This document shows, piece after piece, positions 56,031 through 64,000 of a DNA stretch of 64,000 bases. The stretch spans positions 128,001-192,000 of the forward strand of contig JANJUP010000022.1 of NCBI GenBank assembly GCA_024710525.1, read 5' to 3'. The notes beneath the pieces are model-generated. The model searched no databases and was not told the DNA's origin. It was given only the letters and a program-made list of their open reading frames with translations. Each line of letters begins with the position of its first letter. Position 1 is the first letter of the stretch. Source of the DNA: Candidatus Rifleibacteriota bacterium (GTDB taxonomy: Bacteria; Muiribacteriota; Ozemobacteria; Ozemobacterales; Ozemobacteraceae). Position numbers and translations under genes: made by a program.

Positions 56031-57113
56031 TCAGTTCTTCAACAACTGCGATATCTGTGCAAGAATGCGCTCTTCGACGTCGTCCGGCCGGCTTTTTGCC
56101 ATGGCTGCAGCCATGGTCGCAAGCTTCTCTGGCTGTTTCAGCTCTTCAACCATTCTGGCAAGACTTTCGCCGTTCAGGTCGCGGTCGAGAAGAAGCCTGG
56201 CAGCACCCAGATTTTCGAGTACTCTGGCGTTCTTTTCCTGGTGGTTGTCGGTTGCAAACGGAAATGGAACCAGAATAGCCGGCTTGCAGCACACGGCAAT
56301 TTCAGCCAGTATCGTGGCTCCGGCTCGCGAAACCAGCAGGTCGGCTACCTCAAAGGCTTCCCGCATCTCGTGCAGGTAGGGCAGCAGGGTGTAATTTTCC
56401 GGGAGTTGGCCAATCGCGGATTTCACCATGTCATGGTCGCGTTCGCCGCTGATGTGAATCAGTCGGACGCTGCTCTTACCAGGCAGCCAGTTTTTTGCCA
56501 GGTCGATACAGGCGCGGTTCAACGATAAGGCACCGCGCGAACCACCGACTGCCAGGATGATGAACTCACCCGGTTTGCGGTTGAATCTTGAGCTGGTGAC
56601 ATTTTTGCTCAGGAAGGCTGAACGAACAGGATTTCCGGTGAGAACGGTCTTTTTCCCGTCTTCCTGTGCAGCAGAGGCGTAGGTCAGAAGCACCTTCGCA
56701 GCCGAGCCTGCAAAAATGCGGTTTGTAACACCCATAGCTGCATTCTGTTCATGAATGACTGCAGGAATTCCGAGTATTCTCGCTGCTGCGAGAACCGGAA
56801 ATGCAACAAAGCCACCGGTAGTGACCGCAAGATCAGGTTTGAATTGTTTGAGGTGTCTGAACGCATCGTAAATACCGGCGGCATTTCTGAAGGGAAATGT
56901 CAGCCAGTCTTTGCTGACGGTTCTCGGCATGCCCTGGGCTCTGACACCCATAAATGCAATGTCTGCTTCCCGACTGACAATTTTTTCTTCCATGCCACCA
57001 CTGACGCCGACGTAACCACTCGAAAAAGTGAAGCGCCGCGCCAGGATTTCTCTAATGGCAAGTGCCGGGTAGATGTGCCCGCCGGTTCCGCCGCCGCTGA
57101 AAACTATACGCAT
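56031..57113 (-). CDS. murG: Undecaprenyldiphospho-muramoylpentapeptide beta-N-acetylglucosaminyltransferase
   Basis: 360 aa GT28 protein (…IVFSGGGTGGHIYPALAI…). Confidence 0.9.
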   Translation of the reverse strand: MRIVFSGGGTGGHIYPALAIREILARRFTFSSGYVGVSGGMEEKIVSREADIAFMGVRAQGMPRTVSKDWLTFPFRNAAGIYDAFRHLKQFKPDLAVTTGGFVAFPVLAAARILGIPAVIHEQNAAMGVTNRIFAGSAAKVLLTYASAAQEDGKKTVLTGNPVRSAFLSKNVTSSRFNRKPGEFIILAVGGSRGALSLNRACIDLAKNWLPGKSSVRLIHISGERDHDMVKSAIGQLPENYTLLPYLHEMREAFEVADLLVSRAGATILAEIAVCCKPAILVPFPFATDNHQEKNARVLENLGAARLLLDRDLNGESLARMVEELKQPEKLATMAAAMAKSRPDDVEERILAQISQLLKN

Positions 57114-57119
57114 TTTTAT

Positions 57120-58298
57120 TTACCTTCTTCTGGTTACCGGGACCGCCGGTTCGGCGAACTGCCCCGAGAAAGGTGCGGCCCGGTGCTCTTCGAAGGCGTT
57201 GCGTCCGGAGCCGTAGCGCGAGACATTGAGAAGAATACCGACGCCTATGGCCAGAAACACAAGACTGGAACCACCGTAGCTGACGAAGGGCAGAGTGATG
57301 CCGGTCGTTGGCATCAGACTCAGAACGACACCGATATTGACCAGTACCTGTAACCCAATGATGGCTGTTATGCCCGATGCCAGCAGAAATCCGAAATTGT
57401 CGGGGGCGCGGGTAGCAATGTATAAACCGCGCCAGAGCAGCGCAAGAAACAGCAGCAGAACGACAGCACCGCCCAGCAGGCCAAGCTCTTCGCAGATGAT
57501 GGCAAAAATAAAGTCGGTGTGTCGCTCAGGCAGAATAAAAAACTTCTGCCGGCTTTGCCCGAGCCCAAGACCCCAGAATCCCCCCGAACCGATTGCAACC
57601 AGCGATTGAATGATGTGGTAACCGCTGGTCCTGGCGTTTTCCCAGGGGTCGATGAAGGCCCAGAACCGCCGCATGCGGTAACCGGCCTGAAAAATCAGCG
57701 CAGTGATCAATACCGCGCCCCCTGCTGCAAGTCCGCCAAGATTTGCCAGCGAACCGTTTCCAAGAAAATACATGGCCAGATAGGTGCCGCCGATAAGCGC
57801 AGCGGTCGACAGATTGGGGCCTTTGTATATGAGAATGAATACAATCCCGGCTACCAGCATGTCTGGCAACATCCCATGCAGAAAATTTCTTATTCTGTCC
57901 TGGCGCAACGAAATTGAATGTGCCATATAAATCACAAAACAGAGCTTGGCAAACTCTGACGGCTGAAAACCAAGACTACCAAAACGTATCCATCTTTTGG
58001 CGCCGCCGATGTCGCGTGCTACGCCAGGCACCAGTACCAGTATGAGAAAGAAAATGGCGACGCCAAGCAGGGGCACTGCCATTTTTTCGAGTTTCTGATA
58101 GGGAAAGTGCGAGATTCCGAACATTGCCAGCAGACCAACGACAACCCACATGAACTGGCGCTTCAGATAGTAGTGTGCGTCTGACATCGTCGCCAGCGAG
58201 GTGACCGAACTGGCTGAATAAACCATGATCAGGCCAACGCCCATCAGGGCGATGACGACGAAAAGAAGCAGATGATCGAAGTGACGACTTTTGTTCAT
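57120..58298 (-). CDS. ftsW: Cell division protein FtsW (SEDS family)
   Basis: 392 aa, 10-TM SEDS protein, sitting between murD and murG as in dcw clusters. Confidence 0.85.
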   Translation of the reverse strand: MNKSRHFDHLLLFVVIALMGVGLIMVYSASSVTSLATMSDAHYYLKRQFMWVVVGLLAMFGISHFPYQKLEKMAVPLLGVAIFFLILVLVPGVARDIGGAKRWIRFGSLGFQPSEFAKLCFVIYMAHSISLRQDRIRNFLHGMLPDMLVAGIVFILIYKGPNLSTAALIGGTYLAMYFLGNGSLANLGGLAAGGAVLITALIFQAGYRMRRFWAFIDPWENARTSGYHIIQSLVAIGSGGFWGLGLGQSRQKFFILPERHTDFIFAIICEELGLLGGAVVLLLFLALLWRGLYIATRAPDNFGFLLASGITAIIGLQVLVNIGVVLSLMPTTGITLPFVSYGGSSLVFLAIGVGILLNVSRYGSGRNAFEEHRAAPFSGQFAEPAVPVTRRR

Positions 58299-59656
58299 TT
58301 CGGCTGTAAGGCTTTCACCAGTTCTTTGAACCTTTCGCCCCTGACTTCAAAATTGGGAAAAAGATCGTAACTGCTGCACGCCGGCGAAAGCAGCACGGTA
58401 TCGCCCTTTTCTGCCCATTCGTAGGCAATATTGACAGCCTGTTCAAAGCTGCCCGCGCTCTTCAGTGGAACCAGCCCCTCAAAGGCAGATCTGAACCGGT
58501 CGCGTGCCTCGCCGTAGAGCACCAGTCCACGACTGGCTGTGCGCACGGCCGTAACCCATTCAGAGAGGTCTGTGCCTTTATCGCGACCACCGGCGATAAG
58601 AATTATTGGCGGCCGACAGGCTTTGAGAGCCGTAATCGAGGCAGCGCAGTTGGTGCCCTTTGAGTCATTGATGAAGGTTACGCCACTGACATCGGCGACC
58701 CATTCAAGCCGGTGTTCAACCCCCGGAAACTCTTTGACCACCTTCTCAAGGTTTTTCGTCTCGACCCCGGCAAGAATTGCAGCCAGAGCGGCGGCCATAA
58801 CGTTTTCGAGGTTGTGTCCGCCAATCAGTTTCACCGAAGAAACCGGGAAAAGATCGTGCCTCTTCTGATTTTCATCAACATAAACAAAGCGTTCGTTGCA
58901 AATGGTTACACAGGGAAAAAGCTCCCCGGTATCCCAACCAAACCAGGCTGTTCTGCACCTGACCTGCCCGGCCATCTCGCGCATGCTCTGCTGATCGGCA
59001 TTCAGTATCAGCCAGTGCTCCGGTCCCATGTTCAGTGCGATGCGCTTCTTGGCATCGATGTAGGCTCTGTAGCTGGGGTAGCGGTCAAGATGGTTCTCGA
59101 AAAAGTTTGTGATCATGGCGATATCAGGAGTAAAATCTGAAATCGTCTCAAGCTGAAAACTGCTGACCTCAAGGACCTGCACCGAATCGTCGCTGGTTTT
59201 TGCCGCAAAATCCATCATTGGTATGCCGATATTGCCACCAAGAAAGACATCACTGAACTGTTCGCGACAGAAAAGAGACAGCAAAGTCGTTGTGGTGGTC
59301 TTGCCGTTACTGCCGGTAACCACCAGTCTCCGCCCCTTCGAGAGTCTGTAGGCAACTTCAATTTCTGAGTAGACCGGAATTTTGCGCTTTTCGGCTTCGA
59401 CAAGAACCGGTATGTCGGGTCGCACGCCGGGGCTGAGAACAATGAAAGACGCATCAAGAACGCGCTCGGTGTGCCCTCCGGCCTCGAACTGAACTTTGCC
59501 GGTCAGGCCTTCACGCTGAAGACTCTGTTTTAACTTCTCTTCGCTCTGAATGTCGGAAATGAAAACATGTGCACCACTTTCAGCCAGACTTCTGGCTGCC
59601 GAAAGCCCGCTCTTGGCGGCTCCAATAATACTGATGGCCTTTCCTGCGACGTTCAT
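58295..59656 (-). CDS. murD: UDP-N-acetylmuramoylalanine--D-glutamate ligase
   Basis: Mur ligase domains (…VTGSNGKTTTT…). The start is set at MNVAGKAISIIGAAKSG. The six-frame ORF extends 21 codons further, to 59719. Confidence 0.85.
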   Translation of the reverse strand: MNVAGKAISIIGAAKSGLSAARSLAESGAHVFISDIQSEEKLKQSLQREGLTGKVQFEAGGHTERVLDASFIVLSPGVRPDIPVLVEAEKRKIPVYSEIEVAYRLSKGRRLVVTGSNGKTTTTTLLSLFCREQFSDVFLGGNIGIPMMDFAAKTSDDSVQVLEVSSFQLETISDFTPDIAMITNFFENHLDRYPSYRAYIDAKKRIALNMGPEHWLILNADQQSMREMAGQVRCRTAWFGWDTGELFPCVTICNERFVYVDENQKRHDLFPVSSVKLIGGHNLENVMAAALAAILAGVETKNLEKVVKEFPGVEHRLEWVADVSGVTFINDSKGTNCAASITALKACRPPIILIAGGRDKGTDLSEWVTAVRTASRGLVLYGEARDRFRSAFEGLVPLKSAGSFEQAVNIAYEWAEKGDTVLLSPACSSYDLFPNFEVRGERFKELVKALQPK

Positions 59657-59708
59657 TGTCTGCCTCATTCGGTGTGTAGATTCAGGCGCAATGATAGCAC
59701 AGTGTGCA

Positions 59709-61032
59709 TTAAACGACAATTCTCTGTTTTATTTTTCGCGGCGCGCAGTTCTGTTCTTCTGCAATTCTGATAACCTCGTCAAATTCAGGCTCGATGACCG
59801 TTTCGCCATCAGGTTTGGTAATTTTCTTGACCCTGATTCTGCCAAAATTGCTGTCGGCTTCTTCGCATTCCCGCTGCAGAGTTGACCGGTCGACACTGCA
59901 GCGTCGCACCCCGATGGTCGGCAGAAGTGAAAAAATCATGTTTTCGATCATTGCCGCCTTTGCCTGCTCAGAGAGCACCTGCAGCTGGTGCCCTGGTCGA
60001 CCTTTTTTCATCAGAATCGGAATCAGACAGGCATCGAGGGCACCGGCCGCCATGAACTTGCTGATTGCGTGCCCAAGCTCTTCGCCTGTGGCATTATCGA
60101 TGTTGCTGGTAAGCTGGGTTATCTGATCAGATTTTTTTTTTTATCGTTTCCGATTCGATCAGAAACGCTCTTAAAAAGTTGGCCCGGCCGGTTTTCAGGC
60201 TGCCATGTCCGTGCCCGACTCTGGTAAAAGTCCGGTTGCCGGCAGCTGCTTTGGCCTGAAGACCGCGCAGCAGCGCTGCACCTGTTGGGGTTGTTAATTC
60301 GAAAGGAACATCGTGGTCAAAGACGACGCTGAACCCCTTGAGAAGCAGGGCGGTTGCCGGCGCCGGCACCGGCATGATGCCGTGTGCGCACCTGACCATG
60401 CCAGAACCGAGATGCACTGGCGAAACGATGACCTCATCCACATCGAGGTCGTCAAGGCAGATAGCTGCACCAACGATGTCGGCAATGCTGTCTCGGGCCC
60501 CAACCTCATGAAAATGCACTTCGTCTGCTCTTTTGCCGTGAACTGTGGCCTCTGCCTCTGCCAGTTCCCTGAAACAGCTGACGGCGATTGTGCGAGCCCT
60601 CGGGCTTATGGCGGCCGCATCGATCATGGCCGTGATTTCTTTCAATCCTCTGTGCGGCGCATGTCCGTGCTCGCTTCGACTGTGGCTGTGGTCACTTGAA
60701 TCATCATTGTCATTGTGACAATGCGTATGGGAATGTTCGTGTTCATGATCGTGATCTTGATCGTGATGTTCGTGGCAGTGCGAATGCCCTGAATGGTTGT
60801 GATCGTCGTGACGATGGTGATGTTGGTGCTCGTCATCGACCGTATTGAAATACAGCCCTCTGATGCCGTCGACCAGACGTTCTTCAATAATGATCTCTAT
60901 CTGACCTTCGGCAAAATTTATGGATTTCAGCCCCTCAATCAATTTCTGGCGGTTTGCACCGAGGTCAAGCAGAGAGGCAACCGCCATATTGCCGGCGATG
61001 CCGCTGAAACAATCCCAGTAAAGAGTTGTCAT
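59709..61032 (-). pseudogene. larC: larC (nickel-pincer cofactor Ni-insertion/CTP-dependent enzyme), split by a frameshift at an A11 homopolymer (60132-60142)
   Basis: The N-terminal 301-aa ORF (60127..61032) contains the His-rich Ni-binding stretch and ends …ETIKKKI* immediately after the A11 run. Removing one A continues the frame as …SDQITQLTSNIDNATGEELGHAISKF-MAAGALDA…, fusing to the 114-aa ORF (59709..60053) with no stop. This would give a ~440-aa LarC. Confidence 0.7.
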
Positions 61033-61829
61033 TGTTTTTTTCCTTTCAGAATGCGCACGGCCGCCGCCGCTGCCCCAAAACCGTTATCGATGTTAACCAC
61101 CGTAATGCCTGCTGAACATGAATTCAACATTCCTAAGAGCGCTGCAAGGCCATTGAAACTTGCCCCATAACCAACCGAGGTTGGCACTGCGATTACCGGG
61201 CACGCTACCAGCCCGCCAACCACGCTTGGCAGCGCGCCTTCCATGCCGGCTGCAACTATTACGGCGTCAGCGTGTCTGAACTGCTCGATGCGGTTCATCA
61301 GCCGATGAATTCCGGCTACTCCGACGTCGAAAATCCTGTCGACGCCGAAGCCCATAAAATCAAGCGTGATCGCAGCCTCTTCGGCAACAGGAATATCAGA
61401 GGTTCCGGCCGCAAGAATGGCAACCCGGCCCCATGGCCGCATTACCACCTCAGAAACCGCCCAGGCAGCACTGCAGCTGAAAATTATGTTTGCCTGCGGG
61501 CATTTCTCGGCAAGAAGTTTGAGAGTTGCTTCACTGCATCTTGTTGCCAGCGCTTTCCCGGTGGTTTCATAAAGGCGATTGAAGATTTCACAGACCTGCT
61601 GCGGTGTTTTTGAAGCGCCATAAATTGCCTCGGGAAACCCGGCTCTGGCTTCTCTGCTGGTGTCGAGCACCGCATCTTTAGTTAAGACTTCGCTGTCTTT
61701 TACCACCTGGTCAGCGGGCAGCTGCGATTGCCCGGTTTCAGTCAGTCTTCTGGCTGCTTCCGCTGCGGTTATCAGGCCGCTTTTATAATCTTCCAGTATT
61801 CTTCTGGTTTTCAGATCGACTGTTTCCAT
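61029..61829 (-). CDS. larB: Nickel-pincer cofactor biosynthesis protein LarB (PurE-like carboxylase/hydrolase)
   Basis: 266 aa PurE-like domain (…AVIVAAGMEGALPSVVGGL…PVIAVPTSVGYG…). 4-nt overlap with larC. Confidence 0.75.
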   Translation of the reverse strand: METVDLKTRRILEDYKSGLITAAEAARRLTETGQSQLPADQVVKDSEVLTKDAVLDTSREARAGFPEAIYGASKTPQQVCEIFNRLYETTGKALATRCSEATLKLLAEKCPQANIIFSCSAAWAVSEVVMRPWGRVAILAAGTSDIPVAEEAAITLDFMGFGVDRIFDVGVAGIHRLMNRIEQFRHADAVIVAAGMEGALPSVVGGLVACPVIAVPTSVGYGASFNGLAALLGMLNSCSAGITVVNIDNGFGAAAAAVRILKGKKQ

Positions 61830-61864
61830 AGTTTCCTTCTGTCTTGTGGTTTGTTGTTTGCCGG

Positions 61865-62863
61865 TTATGAGCTTGTGCCGTTTTCCGGACTGAGTGTGAA
61901 AGCCTGAAGATCTGATCGCTGATGCCCGAGTGCAAATACCAGAGTGCCGAGGCAGACTGCAAACCAGAGAGTCAGAGCCCGTATGAGAAAGGTTGCCGAT
62001 ACTGCCTGTGCCTGCGGTATTGCAGCGAACACGAAGAACATTCCCATTGCGCCTTCGGTTATCAGAAGTCCGCCGGGTAAAAACGACAGGGCACCGGCAA
62101 TCGAGCCGAAGGCGTGCGCAAAAATCGAAATAGCGGGCAGATTGTCTGCCTGCAGACCCATGGCACGAAAAATCATGAAAAGTGCCACCCCTTCACCTGC
62201 CCATGAAATGGCGCTCAGAGGCACCGAAACCATCATTGCTCTCAGGTTCAGAATACTGCCCGTGCTCTGCTGCATAGCCCGCACCGCGCTCTTAAGACCT
62301 GCCAGTTTAGGGTGCAGATTCAGGGCCCTGTCAGCCAGATTCCAGAATGCCGGTCTGGTGAGGCAGATAACTCCCGAGGTGATTAATATGCCGGTCAATA
62401 AAAGCATTCTGCCACCATAGGCGAACTGTGAGAAGCCGGCTGCACACAGGATCAGAAGTCCGATCAGGTCTGTCAGACGCTCTGCCATGATAATCGGAGC
62501 GGTGGCCGATATGGGTATTCCCATACGGTTTTTCAGCAGCAGCGATTTAACGAGTTCGCCGAGCTTGGCTGGACTGAGGACCATGGTAAAGGCTGAAAAA
62601 AATACCCATAGATTTAATTTGAGCGGCACCCTGATATTAAGAAGCCGCAGAAACCAGTTCCATTTGGCGAAACGCAGTGCGTAGTTGAAGAGCACGGCCA
62701 GAATGATGAGGCAGAGCCACTGCAGCGAAATGCCTCCGACCAGTTCGATTACCCGATCCAGATCGGCGAACATGGCTGCGGCGGTTAAAAAAAGCACAGC
62801 AGCCACAGCCAGCCATAAAGATAGTCTGAAAATAATTGAAGACAGGGAAATCGCTTTTTGCAT
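61865..62863 (-). CDS. UPF0104/flippase-like (LPG-synthase TM-region-like) membrane protein
   Basis: 332 aa, ~8 TM helices, Leu/Ala-rich. Resembles YbhN/TIGR00374-type proteins. Confidence 0.5.
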   Translation of the reverse strand: MQKAISLSSIIFRLSLWLAVAAVLFLTAAAMFADLDRVIELVGGISLQWLCLIILAVLFNYALRFAKWNWFLRLLNIRVPLKLNLWVFFSAFTMVLSPAKLGELVKSLLLKNRMGIPISATAPIIMAERLTDLIGLLILCAAGFSQFAYGGRMLLLTGILITSGVICLTRPAFWNLADRALNLHPKLAGLKSAVRAMQQSTGSILNLRAMMVSVPLSAISWAGEGVALFMIFRAMGLQADNLPAISIFAHAFGSIAGALSFLPGGLLITEGAMGMFFVFAAIPQAQAVSATFLIRALTLWFAVCLGTLVFALGHQRSDLQAFTLSPENGTSS

Positions 62864-62902: not shown

Positions 62903-62941
62903 AAAAAAAAGCCGACTGCTTGCAGCAGTCGGCTTTTTTTG
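62903..62941. terminator. Bidirectional rho-independent terminator (A8-gccgactgc...gcagtcggc-T7)
   Basis: Perfect 9-bp GC-rich stem with a 5-nt loop, flanked by A8 and T7 runs. Sits downstream of the minus-strand gene ending at 62950. Confidence 0.8.
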
Positions 62942-62949
62942 AATGAATA

Positions 62950-64000
62950 TCAGCGGCGATTGTAATAGTCGCGCATTGCTTTTTCGGTGAGGCGGTTCAA
63001 AGTTGCTTCGTCACGCTCTTCTGAGTCGAAGGGTATGGCGACCGGAATAATCTTTGCGGTTTTGGGGGCGACCACCTGCAGACCATTCTGAATTCCGCCA
63101 GAGAGCTGACTTTCAACCGTAGAAATGGTTTTGTTGGTAAGCGATTTTTTGAGAAAGTCAACGATCTTATTGAGGTCCGGGGCGGCTCCGTCATCATACT
63201 TGGCCTTTTCGAGGCCCGAGGCGAGGATTTCTGATTTGGCCACACCGTTCCAGCCGCCAAATGTCTGCAGCATTTTACCGTTTGCCTCGTCGACGATTCC
63301 GCCGAGTTGTTTGTCAATCTGCTGCTCGGTCATTCCCTGTGACCGGAGCTGGTTAACACGCATGTTGACGTATTCGTTGCGGAAAGAGGTGGGTTTAACC
63401 ATGGCAGAGGCATTGTAGGCGCGTCTGACCACATTGTCGATTTCGGCCTGTTTGAGTTCAGCCTGTGAGCCGCCTTTGAGGCGATCCATCCAGTGGGCCG
63501 CATCGCCGCCCTTGTATTCGGTGCGCATGACTTCGACGCCATTTTCGTCGGTTACCACTACATAATGTTTGCCGTCATTGCCTTTTTCTACCTTGCCGAG
63601 AAGTTCCTGGGTCTGGCGGTTGGCCTTTTCTTCCATCTGGGCAAGTTTCATGGCGTTGGCTTTGGCTGCGTCATCGTAGCCCTTTGCAACTTCGGCCTGG
63701 GCTTTGACTCTCAGCTCCTGGGCGTCGAGATCCGCATTTTCCGGCTTTTTACTCAGTTCCTTGATTTTGAATTCGACGTAGCTTTCGCGACCAAGTGAGC
63801 GGGCGAGTTCAGACTGCCGGGCATATTCGATATCCTGTGCCACCTGTTTTTCGATATTTTTGATGACAGCTTTGTTTTCGCTGGTGCTCTGAGCGTTGCT
63901 GGCGTCGACCTTTGCCTTCTGATAATCAGTGCGCAGGCTGTTAACTTCACGGGCATACTGTTTGAGAGCCTGAGAATATTCCTGTTTGGTGGCATAATCG
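62950..64000 (-). CDS. Hypothetical Lys/Glu/Ala-rich helical protein (5' end outside the window)
   Basis: The reading frame is open from 64000 down to the stop at 62950. The six-frame track begins at a GTG (63843), but no stop lies upstream, so the gene probably extends past the window edge. Confidence 0.5.
   Translation of the reverse strand, partial: DYATKQEYSQALKQYAREVNSLRTDYQKAKVDASNAQSTSENKAVIKNIEKQVAQDIEYARQSELARSLGRESYVEFKIKELSKKPENADLDAQELRVKAQAEVAKGYDDAAKANAMKLAQMEEKANRQTQELLGKVEKGNDGKHYVVVTDENGVEVMRTEYKGGDAAHWMDRLKGGSQAELKQAEIDNVVRRAYNASAMVKPTSFRNEYVNMRVNQLRSQGMTEQQIDKQLGGIVDEANGKMLQTFGGWNGVAKSEILASGLEKAKYDDGAAPDLNKIVDFLKKSLTNKTISTVESQLSGGIQNGLQVVAPKTAKIIPVAIPFDSEERDEATLNRLTEKAMRDYYNRR

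Follow-up and report, generated by a model that had tools for sequence, protein, structure and literature searches.

In a 64,000-nucleotide stretch of DNA from a Candidatus Rifleibacteriota bacterium (GenBank assembly GCA_024710525.1, contig JANJUP010000022.1, positions 128,001 to 192,000; hereafter the window), a run of eleven adenines (A11) splits the gene larC into two reading frames. The run lies in the linker between the nickel-binding domain LarC1 and the cytidine triphosphate (CTP)-binding domain LarC2. We somewhat favour the reading that this run is a conserved, selected and slippage-prone recoding site, of the same kind and at the same place as in Lactiplantibacillus plantarum, and that the gene is functional. 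We observe the anatomy of the site, the conservation of the tract together with selection on its nucleotides, several frame states among relatives and purifying selection on LarC2.

The A11 run and the domains of larC

The gene is encoded on the minus strand. The A11 run (60132-60142; T11 on the plus strand) is read as AT[A AAA AAA AAA A]TC (run in brackets) and marks the change of frame in the linker. No other homopolymer of the 64-kb window is as long; the runner-up has 8 nucleotides. In the zero frame, an open reading frame (ORF) of 301 amino acids (60127-61032) encodes the LarC1 domain (TIGR00299, E 2.2e-59). This ORF terminates one codon past the run: it ends in ...ESETIKKKI, followed by TGA (60127-60129). 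The LarC2 domain (NCBIfam NF052512, E 5.9e-35) is encoded in the +1 frame by 140 codons and a stop (59709-60131, stop at 59709-59711). Because a UAA lies just upstream in the same frame, the LarC2 frame opens only inside the run. A sequence-only reading of this DNA, made by a model from the letters and their ORFs, had described two larC frames parted by these eleven adenines. The ORFs, their translations and the position of the run bear this out.

The same reading held that one A fewer would restore a continuous ORF, and it does. The repaired protein has 440 amino acids and matches Pfam PF01969 over positions 1-374 of 375 (E 3.5e-121), in addition to both the LarC1 and the LarC2 model at the E-values given above. 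It also matches PDB entry 12BI (E 1.9e-57), the LarC described in PMC13510736. The alignment with PDB entry 6BWO, the crystal construct of L. plantarum LarC2, begins at query residue 301, right after KKK. Hence, the run is placed exactly at the domain boundary. In LarC of Moorella thermoacetica a flexible linker of 13 residues occupies the position of the run, and altering that linker strongly cuts activity (PMC13510736).

LarC1 contains a histidine-rich, putative nickel-binding segment (60652-60834, minus strand), recognised by its composition: 24 histidines in 61 amino acids. The nickel-binding role of LarC1 histidines is described in PMC13510736. The segment varies in length (it differs by an in-frame indel of 6 nucleotides from L099, one of the related loci, which we number with an L), and the proteins of the clade have 436-458 amino acids. 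At a 97.8% identical locus, L100 (Joint Genome Institute (JGI) Ga0116176_10003632), larC codon 84 within the segment is changed from TCG to an amber TAG (window ~60781-60783). That larC is otherwise intact, with A10 in frame, and the amber codon may reflect a genuine null allele, an error of sequencing or read-through. From the LarC1 and LarC2 models, the histidine-rich segment and the adjacency of larB, the window gene is predicted to encode LarC, the nickel-pincer cofactor cyclometallase.

A run of 10 A by itself is within chance. Shuffles that preserve dinucleotides contain 1.12 matches on average, and at least 2 are present in 25 of the 100. Our case therefore rests on the position of the run at the domain boundary and on its conservation in relatives.

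Frame states in related genomes

We define the clade of the window, which is Rifleibacterium-like, as the loci whose LarC1 core is at least 61% identical. Metagenomes were scanned with the N-terminal 66 amino acids as the seed. This seed is blind to the junction, and the scan is hence unbiased by frame state. A scan of genome contigs by full-length alignment gave 80 loci ranked by tblastn E-value, among them L003, L007 and L039. It favours intact single-frame genes, and we do not use it as a census of split genes.

Every sampled locus of the clade, including those from the N-terminal seed, has a run of 8 to 12 A at the linker. The sequence-only reading had proposed a comparison with orthologous larC genes; it shows the run to be conserved in the clade and finds all three frame states among the relatives. 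LarC2 is in frame with A10 in L083, L099, L100, L094/95, L101-105 and L118, with A9 in L003/L111, L107, L109, L112 and L113, and with A8 in L114. It lies in the +1 frame with A11 in the window and in L084. It lies in the -1 frame with A12 in L085 and L110, and with A10 in L086/87, L088-92, L116 and L093.

The out-of-frame states recur. L084 has a protein that is 80% identical to that of the window and a different codon before the run, and shares the A11 state. The out-of-frame allele of L088-92 comes from five separate JGI metagenomes, and in the basal subclade LarC2 is out of frame in four of five deep lineages. Both frames that do not encode LarC2 stop 0-6 codons from the run in 23 of 24 loci (the exception, L085, is a partial contig). 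A protein search returns intact close homologs that read ...ETIKKKSDQITQL... and many relatives whose products stop right after KKK.

Outside the clade, in a more distant, Ozemobacteraceae-like group, the linker is GC-rich and lacks the run, and larC is always in frame. L007, a locus on a metagenome-assembled chromosome (OW818663.1, 2341-2350) whose LarC is 37% identical to that of the window, carries A10 in frame (GKKKS) in this linker, and the related proteins P0096, P0098 and P0107 read GKKKS or GEKKS. The L007 group may be a third independent lineage that carries the tract.

Selection on the run and on LarC2

The lysines of the linker are encoded by 57 AAA and 0 AAG codons, against 128 AAA and 46 AAG at the other conserved lysine columns in these genes. 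In 20 of 21 genes, A is the last base of the codon that precedes the run, whichever amino acid it encodes (ATA, GTA, CTA, CAA, TTA, TCA, ACA). All seven of these codons are rare: ATA accounts for 13% of isoleucine codons, GTA for 13% of valine, CTA for 1% and TTA for 2% of leucine, CAA for 11% of glutamine, TCA for 16% of serine and ACA for 14% of threonine. Overall, 15% of third positions in the genome are A. Such codon usage argues that the run itself, beyond the lysines that it encodes, is maintained by selection at the nucleotide level.

Selection also acts on the domain behind the run. When the run length is adjusted, all complete out-of-frame loci yield full-length LarC with a conserved C-terminus. 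The ratio of nonsynonymous to synonymous substitution rates (dN/dS) of LarC2 is 0.09-0.10 between the window and L083 and L099, a comparison of low statistical power across a recent event. Between L088 and L116, which are both out of frame, the ratio is 0.12, with saturated synonymous sites.

The sequence-only reading had listed a pseudogene as the first of three possibilities. We reject a decaying pseudogene: LarC2 is open for 140 codons and under the constraint just given (dN/dS ~0.09 against the near strains), and ~4-5 kb of alignment with three strains contain no frame-breaking indel besides the run.

Slippage at the run

Compared with the in-frame A10 of its closest relatives, the window has one extra A, which we read as tolerated at a recoding site. 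Decoded in the standard way, the gene would give LarC1 alone, with 301 amino acids. We propose that RNA polymerase slips on the T11 template, so that some mRNAs would carry A10 or A13 and full-length LarC would be made beside LarC1. The predicted products are LarC1 of 301 amino acids (...KKKI and stop) for an mRNA with A11, a chain of 304 amino acids (...KKKNLIR and stop) for A12, and full-length LarC of 440 or 441 amino acids for A10 or A13, respectively. A ribosome that slips by +1 or -2 on the lysine codons is a possible contributor. For transcriptional slippage an A or T run needs 9 or more nucleotides, as many as the RNA:DNA hybrid has (PMC5009743), and A11 exceeds this threshold.

From these comparisons we infer slippage in this organism, as well as its efficiency and its transcriptional or ribosomal nature. 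The sequence-only reading had called the site slippage-prone. The clade-wide A-run and the precedent in L. plantarum show that this pointed in the right direction, and slippage in the organism itself would follow from them by analogy.

A single -1 ribosomal shift does not help the window allele, and we favour transcriptional slippage. Furthermore, the alleles of the clade need opposite shifts at one run. If the polymerase made transcripts of varied run length, this one mechanism would explain them all. For the -1 alleles a classical ribosomal heptamer fits as well (A_AAA_AAG in L088 and L116 is one); hence transcriptional and ribosomal processes may both contribute.

A nascent-RNA hairpin, which may promote the slip, is predicted directly upstream of the run. 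It is formed by CGUUUCUGAU-CGA-AUCGGAAACG (60145-60167, minus strand), has 10 base pairs and ends 2 nucleotides before the run (minimum free energy -11.2 kcal/mol, z -3.2 against shuffles). Across 7 clade sequences 89.6% of the cells are paired. Two pairs show double compensatory changes, and a third alternates between G-U and A-U across the subclade. The hairpin is kept in the subclade of the window and in L110, which changes two pairs on both sides (G-C to A-U and U-A to C-G). Slippage by one-nucleotide deletion in Roseiflexus IS630 is stimulated by a stem-loop that the nascent RNA forms just 5' of the slip motif, and ribosomal shifts of +1 can likewise be promoted by a 5' stem-loop (PMC5009743).

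We found no Shine-Dalgarno (SD)-like motif upstream of the run, and a scan for terminators and promoters gave no relevant prediction there. We discarded an intrinsic terminator as a candidate, since a hairpin that precedes A's on the coding strand does not qualify as one.

Weighing the alternatives

Several observations weigh against slippage that restores LarC in the window. The nearest relatives (L083, L099 and L100) have A10 and are in frame. Among the 15 listed members of the 24-member cluster at 90% identity, which are named Candidatus Rifleibacterium sp., only the protein of the window is cut at the run; the other listed full-length members have 436-444 amino acids. In a neighbour-joining tree the window allele is nested among in-frame A10 alleles. 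The A11 state is therefore recent, and it is too recent for selection on LarC2 to inform on the branch of the window. The allele needs an mRNA deletion of 1 nucleotide, an insertion of 2, or a ribosome shift of +1 or -2. The predominant outcome of slippage on known A-runs, insertion of one A, leads to a truncated product in this gene, and the yield of full-length LarC may be low. The support for the hairpin comes from 7 sequences, and in 15 of 500 shuffles the values come out at least as high; neither the A9 subclade nor the basal subclade nor Lactobacillus has the hairpin. There is no Rfam match over 59600-61100 (E up to 1). Folding of the 92 nucleotides downstream of the run is no more stable than that of shuffles (z +0.29), and on this result we also reject a downstream RNA structure as a stimulator of ribosomal frameshifting.

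These points leave room for an error of sequencing or assembly, another possibility named in the sequence-only reading. The genome would then truly carry A10 and a single intact larC ORF, with the slippery tract still present. We consider this unlikely. Homopolymers of such length are error-prone, and the A10 of the three nearest strains together with the full-length cluster members would fit an error. However, the same pair of ORFs (301 and 114 amino acids) is recorded on three contigs (3,022; 73,099; 446,097 nucleotides). A11 is present in both contigs with readable DNA, the NCBI contig of the metagenome-assembled genome and an independent Logan assembly of SRR19748632, which differ by 2 single-nucleotide polymorphisms in 3,022 nucleotides. 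This agreement weakens the case for an error, while the A10 of the nearest relatives keeps it alive.

The alignment with L083, L099 and L100 (~4-5 kb, 97.6-98.2% nucleotide identity) points the same way. The extra A is the only frame-breaking coding indel; the only other coding indel is the 6-nucleotide in-frame change in the histidine-rich repeat, and the remaining gaps are in an intergenic hairpin. Thus the assembly is not generally prone to indels. The A11 of L084, a second lineage with another preceding codon, and the recurrence of the L088-92 allele in separate metagenomes likewise speak against an error.

Alternatively, A11 is real, arose by slipped-strand mispairing during replication and switches LarC off, either as the OFF state of a phase-variable gene or as a very young null allele, without meaningful recoding. 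We regard this as quite unlikely. The tract does look like a hypermutable contingency tract, since its length is polymorphic between close strains, A10 against A11 at the identities just given, and on Lactobacillaceae plasmids as well. The A11 state is recent, and the correction that it needs (-1 or +2 nucleotides) is not the commonest product of slippage. Yet out-of-frame states persist in deeply diverged lineages, with a LarC2 dN/dS of ~0.12 and saturated synonymous sites, and the extension of the tract by rare codons ending in A argues that the tract is used and not merely tolerated. A cofactor-maturation enzyme is not known as a typical target of phase variation, which also counts against this alternative. 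In L. plantarum an active full-length LarC comes from an out-of-frame allele, according to PMC13510736, and an A11 tract in Citrobacter rodentium gives mRNAs with 10-15 A (PMC4256274).

It is highly improbable that LarC1 and LarC2 are made as two polypeptides and assemble in trans, even though Paenibacillus larC1 stops ahead of an SD motif and the ATG of larC2 and LarC2-sized stand-alone proteins are common among database representatives (PDB entry 3C19, with 186 amino acids, is an example): in the window the LarC2 frame has no ATG, GTG or TTG between the run and the conserved NIDNATGEE motif, for which reason we reject independent translation of LarC2, the first ATG (60053) has no SD motif and a start there would remove ~26 residues, including the invariant N310, D312, N313, G316 and E317, and altering the covalent linker strongly lowers the activity of M. 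thermoacetica LarC (PMC13510736).

Among the best 150 representatives of 50%-identity clusters that match the LarC2 domain, more than one third are shorter than 260 amino acids. They may be stand-alone LarC2, fragments of frameshifted genes or products of truncated contigs. P0136 (114 amino acids), P0140 (111) and P0260 (123) begin at query residues 27-28, which is the gene-caller artefact expected of a frameshifted larC.

Genomic neighbourhood

The gene larB (61029-61829, minus strand) lies directly upstream of larC, and its stop overlaps the larC start (ATGA). It encodes 266 amino acids and is intact, as the sequence-only reading had stated (NCBIfam NF033503 LarB, E 3.4e-84, 281.7 bits at a cutoff of 175). 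The gene order LPG-synthase-like membrane protein, larB, larC, murD, ftsW, murG (56031-62863, minus strand) is found in the window, in its subclade, in L085 and in L093. In L086-L089 an alpha-amylase gene replaces the LPG-synthase-like gene, and larB-larC-murD-ftsW is retained. The nickel-pincer cofactor genes therefore stand at the head of a cell-division/wall (dcw) cluster. A GC-rich intergenic hairpin at ~62903-62950, with A8 on one side and T7/T8 on the other, resembles a bidirectional terminator and has several indels among near-identical strains.

Implications

The splitting of larC is a recurrent and probably functional feature. Annotation pipelines will call larC broken and score the synthesis of the nickel-pincer cofactor as absent, both in the window and in many related genomes. 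According to PMC13510736, the recoding position between larC1 and larC2 is already known, with L. plantarum as the single experimental case. What is new beyond that case is that the tract is selected, that it exists in three frame states, that the Lactobacillus site is the same homopolymer and that some lineages need a shift opposite to that of L. plantarum. Given a selected homopolymer with three frame states and opposite shifts, we favour slippage by RNA polymerase as the general mechanism and hold a dedicated -1 ribosomal signal to be less likely. The results also suggest that free LarC1 may be needed by the cell alongside full-length LarC. This bears on the mechanism of LarC, in which LarC1 trimers rearrange around a LarC2 hexamer via the same linker.

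More tentatively, and with some doubt, we suggest a broader role for the run. The poly-A tract of the linker could be an ancient, positively maintained and programmed slippage site in at least two phyla (Riflebacteria-like bacteria and Lactobacillaceae, plus the L007 group), which would set the ratio of free LarC1 to full-length LarC. The spread of run lengths would make the gene robust to indels, and lineages would drift among the in-frame, +1 and -1 states. The 'ribosomal' frameshift of L. plantarum would then be largely transcriptional, and the hairpin would tune the slip in the Rifleibacterium branch.

Comparison with known systems

The closest known case is larC of L. plantarum, whose larC1 and larC2 are joined by a "programmed ribosomal frameshift" according to PMC13510736. 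The junction reads ttc gAA AAA AAA AAc taa in L. plantarum Heal19 and CXG9 and in L. paracasei pW56, all plasmid lar operons. It has A10, LarC2 lies in the -1 frame and two coding sequences are annotated. L. paracasei TCS has A11 at this place, and its larC is one in-frame gene. Therefore, what has been published as a frameshift site is also a poly-A run, and it occupies the position of A11 in the window.

Both systems concern the same gene and the same linker position, just before the start of the LarC2 crystal construct. In both, 10-11 A encode Lys-Lys-Lys and a zero-frame stop follows closely (A11 then ATC TGA in the window, A10 then C TAA in L. plantarum), and in both, in-frame and out-of-frame alleles coexist among close relatives. 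They differ in the direction of the shift. LarC2 of L. plantarum is in the -1 frame, which fits a -1 heptamer (A_AAA_AAC) or the insertion of one A, whereas LarC2 of the window is in the +1 frame. The -1 state is shared by L085/L110, L086, L088, L093 and L116. The hosts also belong to different phyla, Riflebacteria-like and Bacillota, and the 5' hairpin is not seen in Lactobacillus. Experimental support for recoding belongs to the Lactobacillus case alone, and the window is tied to it by sequence comparison. A second, divergent larC on the L. plantarum TS12 plasmid pLP12-1 (L129, NZ_CP018325.1) is in frame, and its linker has no A-run (..ITESNLSMQINSETKDHV..). The tract is therefore not universal even within the lar genes of one species.

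In Paenibacillus larC is split at the same linker by other means, in L098 (1290-1340; P. cellulositrophicus plasmid NZ_CP045296.1) and in L039 (2420-2465; Paenibacillus sp. J45TS6). Here larC1 ends in GGC GAA TAA (TAG in L039), followed by AAAGGAG or GAGAGGAG and by the ATG of larC2. Paenibacillus handles this domain boundary in a third way. The sequence-only reading had raised the possibility of orthologs that encode LarC as two polypeptides; it holds for Paenibacillus, with its stop, SD motif and ATG, but the window does not have that architecture.

Among unrelated genes, tssM1 of C. rodentium is the most similar in layout. It has A11 followed by a stop, produces mRNAs with 10-15 A and has ~25% of its product in full length, without an SD motif or a downstream structure (PMC4256274). 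In the window, likewise, A11 stands just before a premature stop, the C-terminal domain is in another frame, and neither an SD-like motif nor a downstream structure accompanies the run. For tssM1, slippage that yields two length variants from one gene was demonstrated by electrospray ionisation mass spectrometry of cDNA, whereas for the window it is deduced. Moreover, tssM1 encodes an unrelated membrane component of the type VI secretion system, and its full-length product comes from added A's, unlike that of the window, which would come from A10 or A13.

The gene dnaX, which makes tau and gamma, uses transcriptional slippage in Thermus thermophilus and ribosomal frameshifting at A_AAA_AAG in Escherichia coli (PMC5009743). 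Like larC of the window, it is a conserved gene with an A or T run of at least 9, and the T. thermophilus slippage site also has nearby stops in both alternative frames (PMC5009743). It yields a full-length and a truncated product, and L088 and L116 carry the exact E. coli heptamer. Unlike in the window, where the long product needs a shift, the long product of dnaX is in the zero frame. The short product of dnaX has an established stoichiometric role; for LarC1 such a role would be hypothetical.

Roseiflexus IS630 shares with the window a hairpin directly 5' of the slip motif, and its one-nucleotide transcript deletion is the change that restores the frame in the window (PMC5009743). Its motif, T5C5, does not slip without the hairpin, whereas an A11 tract slips alone, and the hairpin of the window is moderately supported.

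Finally, in insect endosymbionts such as Buchnera and Blochmannia, out-of-frame poly-A tracts persist in genes under purifying selection and are rescued by polymerase infidelity. Those genomes are AT-rich, reduced and under weak selection. In contrast, the genome of the window has 52% GC, and its tract is extended by rare codons, which suggests that the tract is positively maintained.

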